Below the pieces are notes generated by a model. The model did no database searches. It saw only the letters and a list, made by a program, of their open reading frames with translations, and was not told where the DNA came from. Both the position numbers and the translations under genes were made by a program. Positions 45,842 to 59,834 of a stretch of DNA of 64,000 nt are shown one piece after another. Numbering within the stretch: the stretch's first letter is position 1; each line of letters opens with the position of its first letter. The DNA comes from Promethearchaeia archaeon (GTDB lineage: Archaea; Asgardarchaeota; Lokiarchaeia; Sigyniarchaeales; SOKP01): NCBI GenBank assembly GCA_029856155.1, contig JAHQWL010000081.1, positions 7,812 through 71,811 of the forward strand, in the 5' to 3' direction.

Positions 45842-46399
45842 TCATGAAATTTTTTTATAAATGAAAGTAAAAATTTTTTGTTTTTCTCTCTTATGAGCTA
45901 GTATATATTTTTCTTTCAAAATAGAGCTAAAATTTTCGAGTTTATGCCTATGAGATATAATAACTGCTCCTTTTTTTGCCGTTCTGAATAGATGTTTAAG
46001 ATATCTATGCATTGAAGGGAGTGAATAAATGTAAATATAATCGTATTCTTTTAAATTATGCAGAAAGAAATCTCCAAGCTTAATTTTTGTCTTTTTTAAT
46101 AGTCTTTTTTTATATTTTCCCTCCTTTTTCAATGATTTGATGCGATTATTTGCTTCTTTTTTTAGGTTTTGATTAATTTCAATTCCATGGGCTCTAATAC
46201 AATAATTTAAAACAGTAAAAATTACTATAGTTCCATTTCCCGCTCCTAAATCAATCAATTTTTGATTAGAGGCGTATTTTAAACCAAATTTAAGTTCAAG
46301 TGTTTTAAATATCTCTCTTAAAAATTCATTATTTGTCTCTGAAAAAGGTAGATCTAATTGCGAATGAAATTTGCCAAAATTCTTTACTTTCTTTTTCAA
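45842..46399 (-). CDS. Class I SAM-dependent methyltransferase
   Basis: KLIDLGAGNGTIVIF is motif I, in a short Rossmann-type protein. Confidence 0.6.
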   Translation of the reverse strand: MKKKVKNFGKFHSQLDLPFSETNNEFLREIFKTLELKFGLKYASNQKLIDLGAGNGTIVIFTVLNYCIRAHGIEINQNLKKEANNRIKSLKKEGKYKKRLLKKTKIKLGDFFLHNLKEYDYIYIYSLPSMHRYLKHLFRTAKKGAVIISHRHKLENFSSILKEKYILAHKREKQKIFTFIYKKIS

Positions 46400-52844: not shown

Positions 52845-53390
52845 TTAGAATTTTTTGATTATTTCATCCAAAATCTCATAATATTCTCCTTCTTTTAGCT
52901 TTTCTTGAATAAGACTTTTTAATTTTCTTAAATAATAGTTGTCTGAATTAGTTCTTTTTGTACCATAAATTTTTTTATTTATTGCAACTCTGGTTTTCTC
53001 ATCCAGAAGTTTAGGTGGAATTTCTTTATATTTTTTAATAATCTCTCTTTTTTCATCTTTTTCAATTAATTTTTCCTTCTGCTCAATTACAGATTGAACT
53101 GTTGAATGTAAATTTCTTATCCATATTTCAATTTTATCAATATCTCCTTTTAGATAAGTTCTCTGGTTTAACCAATCCTTAAATTCAATCACTTTATTTA
53201 AAATCCTATCTTCCTCTAAAATTTTACTGGAGATTTGACTCTTTTTTTTTACCATATCTCGAATTTTCTTCTTTTTTAACTCCTGAACCTCATCCTTTGT
53301 AAGACGCTTAAACGCAGCTTCTCTTTTCATTCTATCTTCTTTTGAATCTTTTTCAGAGAGCCATTTATCAATTGACATTTTAATTCTCAC
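52845..53390 (-). CDS. Hypothetical Lys/Glu-rich coiled-coil protein
   Basis: 181 aa, highly charged. I recognise no motif. Confidence 0.4.
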   Translation of the reverse strand: MRIKMSIDKWLSEKDSKEDRMKREAAFKRLTKDEVQELKKKKIRDMVKKKSQISSKILEEDRILNKVIEFKDWLNQRTYLKGDIDKIEIWIRNLHSTVQSVIEQKEKLIEKDEKREIIKKYKEIPPKLLDEKTRVAINKKIYGTKRTNSDNYYLRKLKSLIQEKLKEGEYYEILDEIIKKF

Positions 53391-54288: not shown

Positions 54289-54319
54289 TTTTAAAAAAAA
54301 GGCAAGGAGTTTAAAATAA

Positions 54320-54394
54320 TGGCCTGGGGGGGATTTGAACCCTCGATATCTGGCTCCGCAAGCCAGCGCCCTATCCAAGCTGGACTACCAAGCC
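54320..54394 (-). tRNA. tRNA-Arg (anticodon GCG)
   Basis: The reverse complement folds by hand as a cloverleaf. Acceptor GGCTTGG/CCAGGCC (one G-U), D arm GTCC-AGCTTGGATA-GGGC, anticodon arm CTGGC-TTGCGGA-GCCAG (anticodon GCG), variable ATATC, T arm GAGGG-TTCAAAT-CCCCC (one A-C mismatch), discriminator A. CCA is not encoded. It is a GC-rich island in AT-rich DNA. Confidence 0.85.
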
Positions 54395-54531
54395 ATTATA
54401 ATCTTTATATGTAATTCTTGATAAATAATTATTTTCTCTAATAAGTATTGTATTTATTTTAATATTTCAAGATTAAAAATGTAATCTAATGCAAAAAAAT
54501 TAAAAAAAAGATAAAAAAAGGGTTAATAATG

Positions 54532-54929
54532 CTAGTATTCTCTCATAATTTCTGTATAGAGATTCTCAATAAATTTGCTAAAATTGTCTTTATCATATTT
54601 GACATTAAGTAAGTGCCATAATATCTTTGGAATATGCTTTTGATCTTCATATACGGGAATCAGTTTTATCAAACCTTCTTTTCTCATTTGGAACGCTGCT
54701 TGCCATTCATCTTTTACAGCTTTAGATTTCACAGAATTTTCGCTACAAAAGAGTAGAAAGGTATTACTTACTTCTAGTGTTTCTTCCATGAATTCTACGA
54801 TGTTTGGTTTGCTATCTTTTTCCCAATACGAGACTTGGTTGATGTTAGGATACTTTTTGAGCTCTTCACAATCTTTTCTATCTGAAAATGATCTCGATCA
54901 GCGGTAGAATAACTTATAAAGAGATTATA
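54532..54929 (-). other. TIR-like domain coding region, split across two frames by a 1-nt frameshift at the T4 run 54874-54877
   Basis: Frame A reads YNLFISYSTADRDHFQIEK. Frame B, after adding one A to the A4 run on the coding strand, reads DCEELKKYPNINQVSYWEKDSKPNIVEFMEETLEVSNTFLLFCSENSVKSKAVKDEWQAAFQMRKEGLIKLIPVYEDQKHIPKIL.. This fits the bacterial/archaeal TIR pattern (FISYs..D...; vvvlS..s..S.w...E; .iiPv......p..l). Confidence 0.65.
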
Positions 54930-57900
54930 CTTTTTTTCTTCCTCTTTCTTTATTATAGGTGGAGGGATAACCGCTTTTTTTATTTCTCTTTCTTTAACGG
55001 GTGGAGCTACTTCTTCCTTTATAACTGGTTTAGAAATTTCTACTTCTAATTCTTTACAATCTTCAACCTTTTCATTTGCTCTGTTAAAAATGTAGTAGAA
55101 ATCATACATATCCGCGGTATCTTGAATTTTTCCTAAATTTTTATAAGCTAATTTAATTTTCCTTTCCCTTATGAGATAATCGACAAAATCCAGCTTTTCT
55201 TCAAGTTTAGCTCTAACTTTTTCTTTTTTCTTCTCACTTATTTCTTTTTCCTTCTTTGTTGGAATTGATATTCTCTTTTTTATAATTATGGCTGCCCCCG
55301 TAACTCCAACAACTACTAAACCAATTATCAAAACGATTATTAAAATATCAAAAGGAAATCCACTAGGTAGCCTTGGTAAAATATTATTTAAACCAATATT
55401 ATTTCCAACACCCGTATCTACAATTGCTTGACCATTATTCAATAGAGTGTTCCAATCAATAGAATTATAGTTAGACTGATCCAGAAATATTCCTATTCCG
55501 TTGTTGTTTATTATATTATTTGTTATATTATTATAATGACTGTTAGATAAATGAATACCATATAGCTCGTTAAAATTTATTGTCTCTTTATTATTAAGGA
55601 TATCGATATTACTACAATCAATCAATACAATTCCAGACCTCTCATTGTTATTAATTGAATTCTCTGTTATCAAAATGTTTTGACAAGAATCTAAAATTAT
55701 TCCATTCGCGTTATTAAACGAACAATTATTATAGATTAATTCACCATTTATCGTTGAGTCTAGTTTAATTCCCCCATCATAAAGATCGTCGCCAGAATTA
55801 TAAAAAGTACAATTTTCAATCCTGAAATCTACATTCGAATTTCTAATTGTAAGACAACTAGTTGAATTCAAGCCATCAATTGTAATTAATCCAATTATAT
55901 ATGGATCATTTAAAGTACCAGAACCATAAATCCATGCTAATTGGCTAATACATTCTACCCACGTAAAATCTCCAGTTCCACTATCATCAATAATAATTGG
56001 ATCTGTGAAACCATTTTCAACATTCCAATTAAAGATATTATTTACACCACCACTTTCATAGATACTATATAAGTTTCCAATGAATACATTACCTATGACC
56101 TTAGTATTATTGCTGCTCCATAAATACAGTCCCGCAAAAGTGTTATAATTTGCTATATTACTTGCAACGATGGCATTATTGCAGTTCCATACAAATATTC
56201 CATTCCAACCATTATTATCTACGATATTTCCTACAACTTTAATATCTTGACCATCATATATGTCTATTCCATTGTCACCATTAAAGGTAACATTGTTGTT
56301 CATTATAGTATTGTTATTACTTGAAGATGATAAATAAATGCCTTTTTGGTCATTATTAAAAGCTGAGTTTTCTGAAATTGTATTATTGTTACTTAAACCT
56401 AAATACATCCCATCAGAATTTTCATTTAAAATGTTTCCCGAAAGAATATTATTATGACTTACTTCTAAAAATATTCCAGACTCTTCATTATTGTTTACTA
56501 TATTTCCATCAATCGTAACGTTTTGACTTTGGTATAACCCAATTCCGACACCATTATTATTTGAACAGTTATTGGTTATCAATTGTCCATTAATAACATT
56601 TGTTAATTTAATACCTGCATTATACACTCCTGAACCGGAATTAGAAAGTGTGCAACCTACTATCTTAAAAAATACCGTAGAATCCCTAATTTCTATGCAG
56701 CTACTTGAATTTTGACCATCGATAATTAAATTTTGAATTATAAACGGATCAGAGTAGCTGCCAGAACCTGTACACCAAATAAACAGATAAGCTGCTTCTA
56801 CCCATATAAGATCGCCTCCTCCATTGTTATCTATAACAAATGGAGAAAGCATTCCATCAAAATAATTTAAAATAAAATTGTTATTTACACTTTCAAATTC
56901 ACTAATGTGTTGAAATAAGTTCCCAATGAATGAATTACTTATAACATCTGTATTATTGCTTCTATATAACCTTAATCCGAATAAATCGTTATTACTTAAA
57001 GTGTTTCCAATAATTGTATTATTATTGCTTTCCCACAACCACATTCCATAATCGTTATGGTCTACCGTATTTCCTATTACTGTATTATTATGACTATGAG
57101 CAATAAATATTCCTTCATCATTATAGGAAAAATTATTATTTAAGATCCAATTGTGATTACTTGAAGATTCTAAATAAATCCCTCTTTGGCCAATATTATT
57201 AAAAGCTGAATTATCTGAAATGTTATTGGCGGTACTTAATCCTAAATAAATCCCAGAATAATAATTCTCATTACAAACATTTCCCGAAAGACTGTTATTA
57301 TGACTTGTTGCTAGAAATATGCCATACTCATCATTATTACCTGCAGTATTTCCTGAAATTGTAATATTTTGACTATCAGATAAACGCATTCCATTGCCGT
57401 TATTATTTGAAAAGTTATTGGATATCAATTGTCCATTAATCACATTTATTAATACGATTCCTGCATTATCTAGCCCTGAAGAAGAATTAAACGTTATACA
57501 GCCTACAATTATAAAATACTCATCGGAGTTCTTAATCGTGATACAACTGCTTAAATTTAATCCATCTATAATTAAATTTTTTATAGTATAAGGATCCTTA
57601 AATGTTCCAGATCCAGAACACCACGCTAATTTATTTGATGCTTGATCCCATTTAAAATCCCCTCCCCCACTATTATCAATGGTAAATGGAGAACTTTCAT
57701 TATTAATAACATTCCAATGAAATGTATTATTAAAGCTATTTATTTCATTATACCATCCGTTTACATTATCATTCAAAATATTACCACATATAAAGCTGTT
57801 ATTACTATCATGTATAGTTAATCCAAAATCATAGTTTTCTTTAATTAAATTTGCGATAATAAAATTATCTTCACAATTATATAAATAAAGCGCGCTTAAA

Positions 57901-59834
57901 GTGCTCTCTGTTATAGTATTTCTTGAAACCGTATTATTATAAGAGTCTGAGTATAACATAATTCCATAAGTGTTGTCTCTAACTAAATTTTCTAGAACTG
58001 TATGATTATTACCAAAAGATAAAAAAATCCCATACATCGAATTAGATTGTAACAAATTTCCTAAAATGGTACTATTTTGACACCAGGCCACAATAATTCC
58101 TCCTAAATTATTGTTATTTAAATTGTTACCTGAAATGGTGCTATCATCACTCCAACTTTGAATCCCACGTTCATCATTATAACTTATGTTATTTCCTAAG
58201 ATTTTACTATTATCACTGTGAAAAATATGTATACCATCGTGAACATTATGGTTTACGATGTTTCCTATAATAGTACTATTATCACCTTCCCAAATGTATA
58301 TTCCATTTCCATTATTATTTGAACAATTATTACCTATTAATGTACCGTTATTTGAATGGTCTAACTTAATTCCTGCATGATTTAAACCTGTGGCGGAATT
58401 AAAAACTGTACAATTTTCAATCTTAAAAAAAACATCAGAATTCTCAATTGTGATACAACTGCTTAAATTTAATCCATCTATAATTAAATTTTTTATAGTA
58501 TAAGGATCATTAAGAGTTCCCGAACCAGAACACCATGTTCGAGTTTTAGCCCAATTCCAGTTATTAGATGCACTATCATCAATGGCAATCTTACTTCCAT
58601 TATGTCCATCATCCCATAAAGGGAAATGATCTTGACCTCCTGCAATACCTGAAATATTATAAGGTGAATCTCCAATACCATCATCATTTTGATCTATTCC
58701 TGTATAATCATCCCAGAAATTTCCCATATTTGTTTTATTCCACTTATTATTTGTACCAGTACCTCCATCAAAAGCGTTAATTCCATTTTTAATAAAAGAA
58801 TTATTATAAAAAAGATTATGATTACTATCTGTGAATGCGTCTTCAATATAGATACCACTATTATTATTTTCATGAATCTCATTATTAGTGAAATTATTAT
58901 AATCACATTGATCGCTTAACCATATTCCAATGTCATTTTTACTCAAATTATTTCGCGAAAGCACGCTATTATCAACATACATGAAATATATTCCTTCACT
59001 AGTACTATTATATATTATATTATCAGAGACTGTGTTAAAATTACTATGCTGTGAGAAAATACCCTGATCATTATAATATAATGTATTTCGGACAATAATA
59101 TTACTATCACCGGAGAAGTAAATCCCACTATGACCATTATTATATATTTTATTGTCTGTAACATTATTATGGTTACCACCCGATAAATAAACTCCAATCC
59201 AACCATTATCAATAGTATTTTCAGAGATTATATTTTGGGTACTTATAACCTCAATAATTGCATTATGGCTATTATCAATAGTATTTATTGAGATGTTATT
59301 TTGATGACTGTATCTTAGAGCTATTCCTGAATCTCCATTATCTTTTAAAGTGTTTCCTGTGATTGTGATATTATTACAGGTTTCAATCCACATTCCAGAA
59401 CGTCCGTTATTAGAACAATTATTGTTTTCTATTGTTCCATTGTTGACATTTTCTAAAAAGATTCCCCCATATAGATTATCATCCTTTGAATTAAAGAGAG
59501 TACAGTTACGAATGATAAAATATACATTAGAATTCCGAACTGTAAGACACCTAGCAGTCGTTTGTCCATCAATCGTTACATTTTCAATAATATATGGATC
59601 ACTCCATGTACCTGAACCTGAGCACCAAGGTTGACCTACTGCCCAAGTCCAATTATTACTAGGATTTAAATCATTAATAAGAATTGGAGTACCGGTGAGA
59701 TCCCAATATCCTGCATTTTTTAAGCTAGTTTCATAATTATTGTTAGGTTGATCAAAAGTATCTAAAATGAAATTAGTTAAAGTTATAAATGTAATGATTC
59801 CCATTAAAGACATTATTTTTAAGTTCTTTTTCAT
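54795..59834 (-). CDS. Giant surface protein: signal/anchor, five tandem right-handed beta-helix (PbH1/NosD-like) modules, one TM helix, cytoplasmic coiled coil and the start of a TIR-like domain
   Basis: 1679-aa ORF with an N-terminal hydrophobic segment. Five modules each open with W(C/I)(S/T/Y)GSG(T/S)..DP(Y/F)(I/T)I..(L/V)(I/T)IDG (aa 70, 434, 738, 1020, 1301). Each module continues with many ~22-aa N/G/I-rich PbH1-type turns (..NN.GIYL..S.NN.I.GN..). The TM helix is FPFDILIIVLIIGLVVVGVTGAAIII (nt 55281-55355). The last residues, YNLFISYSTADRDHFQIEK, start a TIR-like domain. Confidence 0.8.
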   Translation of the reverse strand: MKKNLKIMSLMGIITFITLTNFILDTFDQPNNNYETSLKNAGYWDLTGTPILINDLNPSNNWTWAVGQPWCSGSGTWSDPYIIENVTIDGQTTARCLTVRNSNVYFIIRNCTLFNSKDDNLYGGIFLENVNNGTIENNNCSNNGRSGMWIETCNNITITGNTLKDNGDSGIALRYSHQNNISINTIDNSHNAIIEVISTQNIISENTIDNGWIGVYLSGGNHNNVTDNKIYNNGHSGIYFSGDSNIIVRNTLYYNDQGIFSQHSNFNTVSDNIIYNSTSEGIYFMYVDNSVLSRNNLSKNDIGIWLSDQCDYNNFTNNEIHENNNSGIYIEDAFTDSNHNLFYNNSFIKNGINAFDGGTGTNNKWNKTNMGNFWDDYTGIDQNDDGIGDSPYNISGIAGGQDHFPLWDDGHNGSKIAIDDSASNNWNWAKTRTWCSGSGTLNDPYTIKNLIIDGLNLSSCITIENSDVFFKIENCTVFNSATGLNHAGIKLDHSNNGTLIGNNCSNNNGNGIYIWEGDNSTIIGNIVNHNVHDGIHIFHSDNSKILGNNISYNDERGIQSWSDDSTISGNNLNNNNLGGIIVAWCQNSTILGNLLQSNSMYGIFLSFGNNHTVLENLVRDNTYGIMLYSDSYNNTVSRNTITESTLSALYLYNCEDNFIIANLIKENYDFGLTIHDSNNSFICGNILNDNVNGWYNEINSFNNTFHWNVINNESSPFTIDNSGGGDFKWDQASNKLAWCSGSGTFKDPYTIKNLIIDGLNLSSCITIKNSDEYFIIVGCITFNSSSGLDNAGIVLINVINGQLISNNFSNNNGNGMRLSDSQNITISGNTAGNNDEYGIFLATSHNNSLSGNVCNENYYSGIYLGLSTANNISDNSAFNNIGQRGIYLESSSNHNWILNNNFSYNDEGIFIAHSHNNTVIGNTVDHNDYGMWLWESNNNTIIGNTLSNNDLFGLRLYRSNNTDVISNSFIGNLFQHISEFESVNNNFILNYFDGMLSPFVIDNNGGGDLIWVEAAYLFIWCTGSGSYSDPFIIQNLIIDGQNSSSCIEIRDSTVFFKIVGCTLSNSGSGVYNAGIKLTNVINGQLITNNCSNNNGVGIGLYQSQNVTIDGNIVNNNEESGIFLEVSHNNILSGNILNENSDGMYLGLSNNNTISENSAFNNDQKGIYLSSSSNNNTIMNNNVTFNGDNGIDIYDGQDIKVVGNIVDNNGWNGIFVWNCNNAIVASNIANYNTFAGLYLWSSNNTKVIGNVFIGNLYSIYESGGVNNIFNWNVENGFTDPIIIDDSGTGDFTWVECISQLAWIYGSGTLNDPYIIGLITIDGLNSTSCLTIRNSNVDFRIENCTFYNSGDDLYDGGIKLDSTINGELIYNNCSFNNANGIILDSCQNILITENSINNNERSGIVLIDCSNIDILNNKETINFNELYGIHLSNSHYNNITNNIINNNGIGIFLDQSNYNSIDWNTLLNNGQAIVDTGVGNNIGLNNILPRLPSGFPFDILIIVLIIGLVVVGVTGAAIIIKKRISIPTKKEKEISEKKKEKVRAKLEEKLDFVDYLIRERKIKLAYKNLGKIQDTADMYDFYYIFNRANEKVEDCKELEVEISKPVIKEEVAPPVKEREIKKAVIPPPIIKKEEEKKYNLFISYSTADRDHFQIEKIVKSSKSILTSTKSRIGKKIANQTS
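57538..57596. repeat. Exact 59-nt intragenic direct repeat, copy 1 (module 3 of the giant gene)
   Basis: gtgatacaactgcttaaatttaatccatctataattaaattttttatagtataaggatc is identical to 58450-58508, 912 nt (304 codons) away. Confidence 0.9.
58450..58508. repeat. Exact 59-nt intragenic direct repeat, copy 2 (module 2 of the giant gene)
   Basis: Identical string to 57538-57596. It encodes DPYTIKNLIIDGLNLSSCIT in both modules. Confidence 0.9.

Follow-up and report, generated by a model that had tools for sequence, protein, structure and literature searches.

An Asgard archaeal gene family joining exchangeable outer parts to a conserved cytoplasmic TIR domain: candidate membrane sensors with a Toll-like layout

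Innate immunity relies on TIR domains in animals, plants and bacteria alike, and the prokaryotic TIR proteins known to us are cytosolic enzymes answering intracellular cues. A gene on the minus strand of contig JAHQWL010000081.1 from a Promethearchaeia archaeon raises the question whether such a domain may also be wired to the archaeal cell surface. It occupies 54532..59834 of the 64-kb stretch (64,000 nucleotides) analysed here and called the window, and a sequence-only reading had seen in it a Toll-like-receptor-style layout, with a giant beta-helix solenoid followed by a single transmembrane (TM) helix, a coiled coil and a TIR-like domain split by a frame break. With one base restored, by alignment and by comparison with an intact allele, the gene encodes 1767 amino acids (aa), and its product is predicted to be a type-I membrane protein consisting of beta-helix ectodomain, TM helix, helical domain and TIR domain. 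We consider it moderately probable that this one gene specifies a beta-helix/TM/TIR membrane sensor belonging to an Asgard family, with TIR output driven by clustering; judged from sequence, the architectural reading is supported and the functional one plausible. If it is true, the closest archaeal relatives of eukaryotes would have a conserved cytoplasmic TIR wired via one TM helix to big, fast-evolving ectodomains, these proteins would be the first prokaryotic “outside-in” TIR receptors, and they would offer a testable model of how TIR output came to be linked to surface sensing, be it earlier than metazoan TLRs or independently of them. The reagents supplied for it are a 250-aa cytoplasmic cassette, an invariant Glu and a candidate SLOG-domain reader.

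Layout of the gene product and identity of its C-terminal domain

The gene is assembled as two adjacent minus-strand open reading frames (ORFs), 54795..59834 (1679 aa) and 54532..54789 (85 aa). A 5-kb open frame amid DNA of 28-29% GC, with profile E-values down to 1e-126, is far beyond chance. The hydrophobic N-terminal anchor noticed earlier is present at aa 1-27 (59754..59834, minus strand as all features of the gene; MKKNLKIMSLMGIITFITLTNFILDTF), where a KK n-region precedes a hydrophobic core with a Kyte-Doolittle (KD) peak of 1.74; the segment is designated as signal peptide or signal anchor. The ectodomain spans about 1465 aa and consists of five tandem right-handed beta-helix modules of NosD/PbH1 type starting at aa 58, 422, 726, 1008 and 1289, as the sequence-only reading had counted and as cap motifs and Pfam now confirm. 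Each module is opened by the cap motif W..W[CI]xGSG[ST]..DP[YF].I, pairwise identity among the five is 36-54% (E 1e-24 to 1e-78), and Pfam recognises NosD with E=1.1e-126 in 9 stretches and Beta_helix with E=2.4e-117 in 11 stretches; these are the only Pfam models found over aa 28-1492, where no LRR model matched. Module 1 (aa 58-421, 58572..59663), with its cap motif at aa 70, retains just 37-41% identity to orthologues. It is followed by module 2 (aa 422-725, 57660..58571), by modules 3 (aa 726-1007, 56814..57659) and 4 (aa 1008-1288, 55971..56813), which share 54% identity, and by the membrane-proximal module 5 (aa 1289-1492, 55359..55970), which is 81-94% identical to its counterparts at the orthologous loci L001, L002 and L006. 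Neither other family copies nor further beta-helix proteins are found inside the window.

The only strong hydrophobic segment described between the ectodomain and the TIR, aa 1493-1518 (55281..55358; FPFDILIIVLIIGLVVVGVTGAAIII), has a KD value of 3.02, is helical in the structure model and is followed by KKR. The single TM helix is thereby substantiated, with its end coordinate corrected from 55355 to 55358. There are six Lys or Arg residues in the 15 aa after the helix vs one in the 15 aa before it, and this positive-inside charge distribution supports a C-terminus inside the cell, in agreement with the topology assumed at first sight. N-glycosylation sequons were also considered as evidence for an outside location of the ectodomain and were set aside, being not enriched (49 observed vs 43.6 +/- 6 in composition-matched shuffles).

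From the TM helix to the TIR there are 116 aa, rich in Lys, Glu and Pro (31 K+R, 25 D+E). An AlphaFold2 (AF2) model covering aa 1485-1767 divides the tail into four regions: the TM helix, three helices predicted with confidence, about 30 disordered aa and the TIR. The roughly 120-aa Lys/Glu/Pro-rich stretch reported earlier is therefore present, but the part of it taken for a coiled coil is modelled instead as a three-helix domain (aa ~1527-1601, 55032..55256; predicted local distance difference test, pLDDT, ~90), conserved in the homologue alignment and followed by a disordered Pro/Lys/Glu-rich linker (aa ~1602-1634, 54933..55031; pLDDT ~30) whose length differs among homologues. The helical unit of about 65-70 aa is family-specific, occurring in single copy in beta-helix members and in five tandem copies in multi-TM members, and it matches across family members at E 1e-40 to 1e-6; a fold search with the whole cytoplasmic tail returned only TIR matches and no known fold for the three-helix unit.

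The last 133 aa are the TIR, which begins in the frame of the long ORF (54868..54932; KYNLFISYSTADRDHFQIEKIV) and is completed in the -1 frame (54532..54867; EELKKYPN...TEIMREY, stop) containing the called 85-aa ORF. Searched with the repaired 134-aa C-terminus, Pfam gives TIR_2 (PF13676) with E=2.1e-16 and 60.9 bits (cutoff 28) over profile positions 2-108 of 122, and the 85-aa ORF by itself reaches 38.1 bits; PF01582 (TIR), with 22.4 bits vs a cutoff of 21.3, is far under TIR_2, and the ThsB_TIR profile matches with 26 bits. The AF2 model of the TIR, built from 23 family sequences (pLDDT 87; predicted template modelling score, pTM, 0.83), displays flavodoxin-like beta-alpha order with strands at 6-11, 35-40, 62-67, 94-99 and about 115. 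The top 50 matches of Foldseek against the PDB were all TIR structures (template modelling scores 0.6-0.75), including MyD88, Hydra TRR-2, SPARTA TIR-APAZ, AbTir, TLR1/2/10, SARM1 and Cat1, and the family profile run against PDB sequences retrieved the TIR-TPR protein 9m0n (E=1e-4), Cat1, a prokaryotic SEFIR domain and AtTIR. Profiles and model agree in making the repaired C-terminus a genuine TIR domain, and by its scores it is of the prokaryotic TIR_2 type. The TIR claim was thus upheld by profile search of the repaired frame and by structure comparison, together with the conserved Glu, and one strand label was not: the block LIKLIPVY, assigned previously to strand E, is strand D in the AF2 model. 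PADLOC and NCBIfam were tried for a finer assignment and yielded only weak ThsB, TIR-NLR and retron-TIR matches with no system assigned.

TIR domains which cleave nicotinamide adenine dinucleotide (NAD), the NADase TIRs, use the Glu of the WxxxE/DEL motif for catalysis. By conservation and alignment Glu1710 (54706..54708, within KDEW) stands at this position: all family TIRs compared have it (23/23), and its counterparts in the alignment are the Glu residues of Cat1 “WDELEQ” and 9m0n “VKKEITE”. The corresponding catalytic Glu is denoted E75 in a survey of TIR domains (PMC7075850). The Trp of WxxxE is replaced by Ala in the window TIR and by Ala or Ser at E-4 throughout the family, where the consensus reads K-A-V-x-D-E-W and an invariant Trp directly follows the Glu.

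A family of C-terminal TIR proteins and the frame break in the window copy

The sequence-only reading knew of no characterised prokaryotic TIR protein wired to so large a beta-helix array; the architecture is not a singular one. Among 5.8 billion proteins, a word-indexed search recovered 39 relatives, and those bearing a name all come from Asgard metagenome-assembled genomes (MAGs); a scan of 185,579 species genomes found 60 loci, all Asgard, mostly in Promethearchaeota plus Thor-, Hermod-, Hod- and Odinarchaeota, with 4-6 loci each in several genomes. An exhaustive HMMER search of 1.84 billion representatives produced 252 matches at E<=1e-30, and as the representatives are clusters at 50% identity the family has at least this size. 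We define it by a TIR at the extreme C-terminus carrying the motifs F[IL]SYST.D, NIVE[FY]ME.T, LFCSENS.KS.AV.DEWQAAFQ and IPVYE, preceded by at least one helical unit of about 65 aa; the window gene fits the definition, its TIR being 52-84% identical to 22 family TIRs and keeping all invariant residues. Among the best 150 of the 252 matches the TIR ends within 20 aa of the C-terminus in 138, and the parts ahead of it differ: 52 have beta-helix plus TM, 13 another ectodomain plus TM, and the rest are multi-TM, cytosolic or fragments. Pfam analysis of members other than beta-helix ones distinguishes SBP_bac_5 + TM + TIR, FG-GAP/beta-propeller + TM + TIR, LRR + PCI + TIR, TPR/SNAP/MIT + TIR and TIR + DUF4268 + LRR; further forms are SPFH/Band-7 + TIR, short soluble TIR-only proteins and multi-TM bundles. 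Two to four tandem TIR modules per polypeptide occur in P0119-P0122, P0191, P0200 and P0224. Across unrelated N-termini the TIR modules keep 50-85% identity. Database records of the family bear automatic names only, e.g., “TIR domain-containing protein”, and an Asgard membrane-TIR family is not described in the literature consulted, including an Asgard defence survey (PMC11291487) and the TIR survey (PMC7075850). Apparently, this is a large, multi-paralogue and undescribed archaeal family with swappable outer parts and a common TIR.

The same division between variable outside and constant inside is visible in orthologues of the window gene. Uninterrupted syntenic orthologues are located in Promethearchaeota (Lokiarchaeia) MAGs at L002, L003, L004, L006 and L007, where the neighbouring genes keep their order and 75-95% identity, in agreement with an Asgard source organism. 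Their size ranges from 2206 aa in L002 to 979-989 aa in L003, L004 and L007. Identity is 33-42% in the distal modules, 54-94% in the membrane-proximal one, 60-89% in the TM helix with the linker and 81-90% in the TIR, the latter being like that of flanking housekeeping genes. Such a rise from outside to inside is what would be expected of a variable sensor with constrained output.

The copy residing in the window departs from its relatives at one base. The frame break noticed earlier, with the TIR continuing in the adjacent frame, is confirmed: DNA alignment with five orthologous loci (L001-L004, L007) shows that one nucleotide is deleted between 54868 and 54867, at the third base of the Val1656 codon (TIR codon 22), where relatives have ATTGTAGAAGAG and the window ATTGT-GAAGAG; with the missing base present at 54867/54868 the sequence becomes ATTGTNGAAGAG. 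The long frame reads ..YNLFISYSTADRDHFQIEKIV and then 23 out-of-frame codons up to the premature TAG (54795..54797) ending the 1679-aa ORF. The -1 frame, which past the break begins EELKKYPNINQVSYWEKDSKPNIVEFMEETLEVSNTFLLFCSENSVKSKAVKDEWQAAF and ends TEIMREY, carries on EELKKYPNINQVSYWEKD..FLLFCSENSVKSKAVKDEWQAAF..LIKLIPVYEDQKHIPKIL.. as far as the stop at 54532. As assembled, the window copy would have no TIR domain, and it appears to be either mis-assembled or a very recent TIR-less pseudogene.

That the frameshift is real, the window copy being a pseudogene or coding for a shortened surface protein devoid of TIR, is a tentative alternative which we rate as possible rather than expected and which is compatible with every reading of the intact family. 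The deposited assembly annotates the 85-aa ORF as a separate gene (P0093), the missing base lies outside a homopolymer (GT[A]GAA), not the typical place of an indel error, and other family copies are visibly decayed (an in-frame stop in L062; no N-terminal TIR half in L063/L064). A single-base assembly error is nonetheless possible: the 112 TIR codons downstream of the break are otherwise undamaged and still specify every invariant residue, 60/60 genomic homologues are open through the TIR, and the intact metagenomic allele P0248, 95% identical over the last 380 aa without gaps, reads IEKIVEELKKY at the site. Moreover, it is behind the TIR stop and not behind the premature one that a T-rich, terminator-like tract is found. 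Programmed -1 frameshifting was rejected as unlikely, since ATT GTG AAG provides no slippery heptamer and relatives encode the site in frame.

Recurrent ORFs of 83-85 aa starting “MEETL...” were examined as a conserved split of the gene and dismissed, each being accounted for otherwise: by a contig edge (L061), a nonsense codon (L062) or N-terminal decay (L063/L064). The gene at L062:625-876 is TIR-only with an in-frame TAA within the TIR, and L063:1696-1947 and L064:359-610 represent the same decayed copy, lacking the N-terminal TIR half, from two different samples. The decayed copies suggest birth-and-death turnover in the family.

Proposed sensor role and competing explanations

We propose that the intact form of the window protein would act as a transmembrane sensor, in which an interchangeable outer part is joined to a near-invariant cytoplasmic cassette of helical unit(s) and TIR. 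The best argument for a sensor role is that SBP_5 ligand-binding domains occupy the position of the beta-helix array in other members. The ectodomain would bind a ligand outside the cell, a glycan or surface polymer being the probable one; ligand occupancy or ectodomain clustering may then bring the cytoplasmic TIR domains together, as the flexible linker would permit, and TIR self-association would turn on the output, for which NAD+ cleavage, an ADP-ribose-derived messenger or recruitment of soluble TIR-only paralogues are candidates. Since all TIR outputs known to us, enzymatic or scaffolding, are triggered by self-association, ligand-driven clustering appears to be the natural coupling; filament and oligomer TIR structures are among the Foldseek matches in the PDB. 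Of the earlier suggestion of a surface sensor for virus, cell contact or glycan, the sensor part gains from SBP_5 or FG-GAP ectodomains preceding the same TM-helical-TIR cassette.

Several observations weigh against the proposed sensor. Surface proteins of the beta-helix/CASH kind commonly serve structural purposes or process glycans. A frameshift interrupts the window copy, and other copies in the family have decayed; the 64-kb window contains no SLOG, SIR2 or other candidate effector gene, its neighbours being metabolic, and the locus is not a defence island as far as neighbours show. NADase catalysis is uncertain, because the Trp of WxxxE is Ala. The conserved Glu is found in more than 70% of all TIRs, non-enzymatic ones included (PMC7075850). 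The RelA_SpoT/TPR/SLOG genes discussed below as possible partners are associated within one conserved synteny block, so that their occurrences are not independent, and the most divergent homologue is without such a neighbour.

Alternatively, the protein may be a structural surface protein, an adhesin or a glycan-processing enzyme, whose TIR merely anchors or organises it via TIR-TIR contacts and passes no signal. This explanation accommodates the fact that NosD/Beta_helix is the sole ectodomain signal, the head-to-head arrangement of the orthologue with a 940-aa TIR-less beta-helix surface protein at L003, L004 and L007, the module number varying freely among orthologues from 979 to 2206 aa, the absent WxxxE Trp, and the scaffold action of the TLR, MyD88 and MAL TIRs. 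We nevertheless regard it as unlikely: the same cassette follows SBP_5 domains, which are typical ligand sensors and not structural parts, it is attached to cytosolic LRR, TPR and SPFH proteins as well, and a TIR as conserved as housekeeping genes across unrelated N-termini is hard to reconcile with a passive anchor. On account of this modularity, a transmembrane sensor with common TIR output is preferred to a mere adhesin.

SPARTA, Cat1 and the TIR effectors of other defence systems halt the infected cell through NAD+ depletion, and a dedicated antiviral abortive-infection sensor would work alike, its ectodomain detecting virus attachment or envelope damage and its TIR depleting NAD+; in spite of closest sequence and fold matches that include defence TIRs (9m0n TIR-TPR, Cat1, SPARTA, AbTir), weak PADLOC matches to ThsB and TIR-NLR, a multi-copy family of birth-and-death behaviour with decayed copies, fast-evolving outer modules and a paralogue neighbour (RelA_SpoT+TPR+SLOG) weakly matching the candidate defence protein PDC-S33, this appears improbable for a TIR unusually conserved for a defence gene, whose orthologous locus lies in stable metabolic synteny and not in a defence island (as judged from the neighbouring genes), which PADLOC assigns to no membrane-TIR system, all matches being weak (E>=1e-4), and no family member of which was found among the viral contigs searched.

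For the transmembrane sensor, a potential downstream component is suggested by paralogue loci. A gene encoding RelA_SpoT, TPR and SLOG domains is situated 170-560 bp downstream of TIR-family paralogues and co-directional with them in at least 10 genomes and in 7 of the 9 metagenomic TIR-family loci with enough flank; the loci noted for this arrangement, which is common to many Lokiarchaeal genomes, are L016, L019, L021, L023, L025, L027, L033, L042, L050, L060 and L067-L077. Its RelA_SpoT part is small-alarmone-synthetase-like (PDB YwaC, E=1e-9) and its SLOG part is LSDAT_prok. SLOG is a ligand-binding domain of the type sensing TIR products in ThsA of Thoeris; the RelA_SpoT/TPR/SLOG protein may likewise read a TIR product, or the adjacency may be mere synteny. 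A more extended version, in which the clustered TIR makes an NAD-derived messenger, the neighbouring RelA/SpoT-TPR-SLOG protein reads it and couples surface events to alarmone-type signalling, TIR-only paralogues serve as adaptors or modulators, and dozens of Asgard receptors follow Toll-like logic, is speculative, and we do not expect it to hold in full.

The RelA_SpoT/TPR/SLOG protein of about 856 aa (e.g., L016:3106-5676) is always encoded in a block with Aminotran_3 and BKACE genes. At least 7 loci have beside the TIR-family gene another one for a 526-aa protein (e.g., L018:10517-12097, L041:5030-6610 and L075:470-2047), composed of an N-terminal globular part, a long coiled coil and a C-terminal part and about 85% identical between Loki- and Odinarchaeota; it has no Pfam or PADLOC match and gives just coiled-coil noise against PDB and NCBIfam. 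The window itself carries neither of these two genes.

Relation to known systems and genomic surroundings

Toll and TLRs share with the window protein the solenoid ectodomain, the single TM helix and the cytoplasmic C-terminal TIR, both constitute paralogue families with variable ectodomains and conserved TIR, and the TIRs of MyD88, TLR1/2/10 and Hydra TRR-2 are among the best fold matches. Differences are, however, substantial: the window ectodomain is a right-handed beta-helix, so the defining LRR feature is absent; its TIR is matched by TIR_2 and just barely by PF01582; TM helix and TIR are separated by the family-specific helical unit and the disordered linker; and no death-domain adaptors are known for the family. 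Solenoid, one TM and cytoplasmic TIR remain of the Toll-like layout once proposed, without LRRs and with a TIR that scores as prokaryotic TIR_2 rather than as eukaryotic PF01582. The likeness is one of domain logic, an analogy best described as convergent architecture and not as TLR membership, and common descent of the receptors is not implied.

With ThsB, AbTir, SPARTA TIR-APAZ and Cat1 the window TIR has in common the fold and the catalytically placed Glu. These are cytosolic proteins triggered by phage cues, nucleic acids or cyclic oligoadenylates, whereas the window TIR is predicted to be membrane-tethered behind a 1465-aa ectodomain, lacks the WxxxE Trp and has no effector gene in the window. 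Some paralogues adjoin a SLOG-domain protein as ThsB adjoins ThsA in Thoeris, but the window TIR gene is without an adjacent SLOG/Macro effector, and RelA_SpoT+TPR+SLOG of the paralogues is not a known ThsA type. A TIR attached to a transmembrane segment is also characteristic of the membrane-anchored bacterial TIR defence system Rst_2TM_1TM_TIR, whose proteins are short, lack an extended outer part and function together with a 2TM partner; no match of this kind was given by PADLOC for the window TIR. NosD/CASH/PbH1 surface proteins resemble the window protein in their strong NosD and Beta_helix matches and in tandem modules each with an N-terminal cap motif, yet as a rule they terminate in an anchor to the membrane or cell wall and carry no signalling domain in the cytoplasm, as is the case for the 940-aa neighbour mentioned above. 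Finally, histidine kinases and chemoreceptors fused to SBP domains are organised similarly to P0125 and P0128, which comprise SBP_bac_5, a TM helix and a cytoplasmic output, and a kinase of this kind (SBP_bac_3 + HisKA + HATPase) adjoins the orthologue in L002; the output of the window family is a TIR rather than a kinase or methyl-accepting domain.

In the window and in its syntenic counterparts the TIR receptor gene is always situated between two HAD hydrolase genes, and the flanks further include genes of a nitronate monooxygenase, an MBL-fold protein, an amidase, an aldehyde dehydrogenase, an epimerase and an NTP-transferase. The 940-aa NosD/beta-helix protein, encoded at L003:4438-7257, L004:4431-7256 and L007:4486-7299 (minus strand), possesses a signal peptide and a C-terminal membrane anchor and no TIR; its gene is missing from the window and from L002, where the receptor is much longer instead. 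A tRNA-Arg(GCG) gene is located at 54319-54395 (minus strand) of the window, 137 nt downstream of the TIR stop, and at the same place in L003, L004 and L007. Extra genes, one of them the SBP_bac_3 histidine kinase, separate the TIR gene from the HAD gene in L002 and L003 (in L003 just past the tRNA), and the neighbourhood of tRNA-Arg(GCG) may be an insertion hot spot. At 52845-53390 (minus strand) the window encodes a 181-aa Lys/Glu-rich protein which has no Pfam match and is preserved with 62-84% identity at the same position in 5/5 orthologous loci. Farther away, at 45842-46399 (minus strand), a 185-aa protein matches the DOT1 histone-methyltransferase profile with E=4.6e-8 (33.3 bits vs a cutoff of 23), a possible DOT1-like methyltransferase in an Asgard genome.

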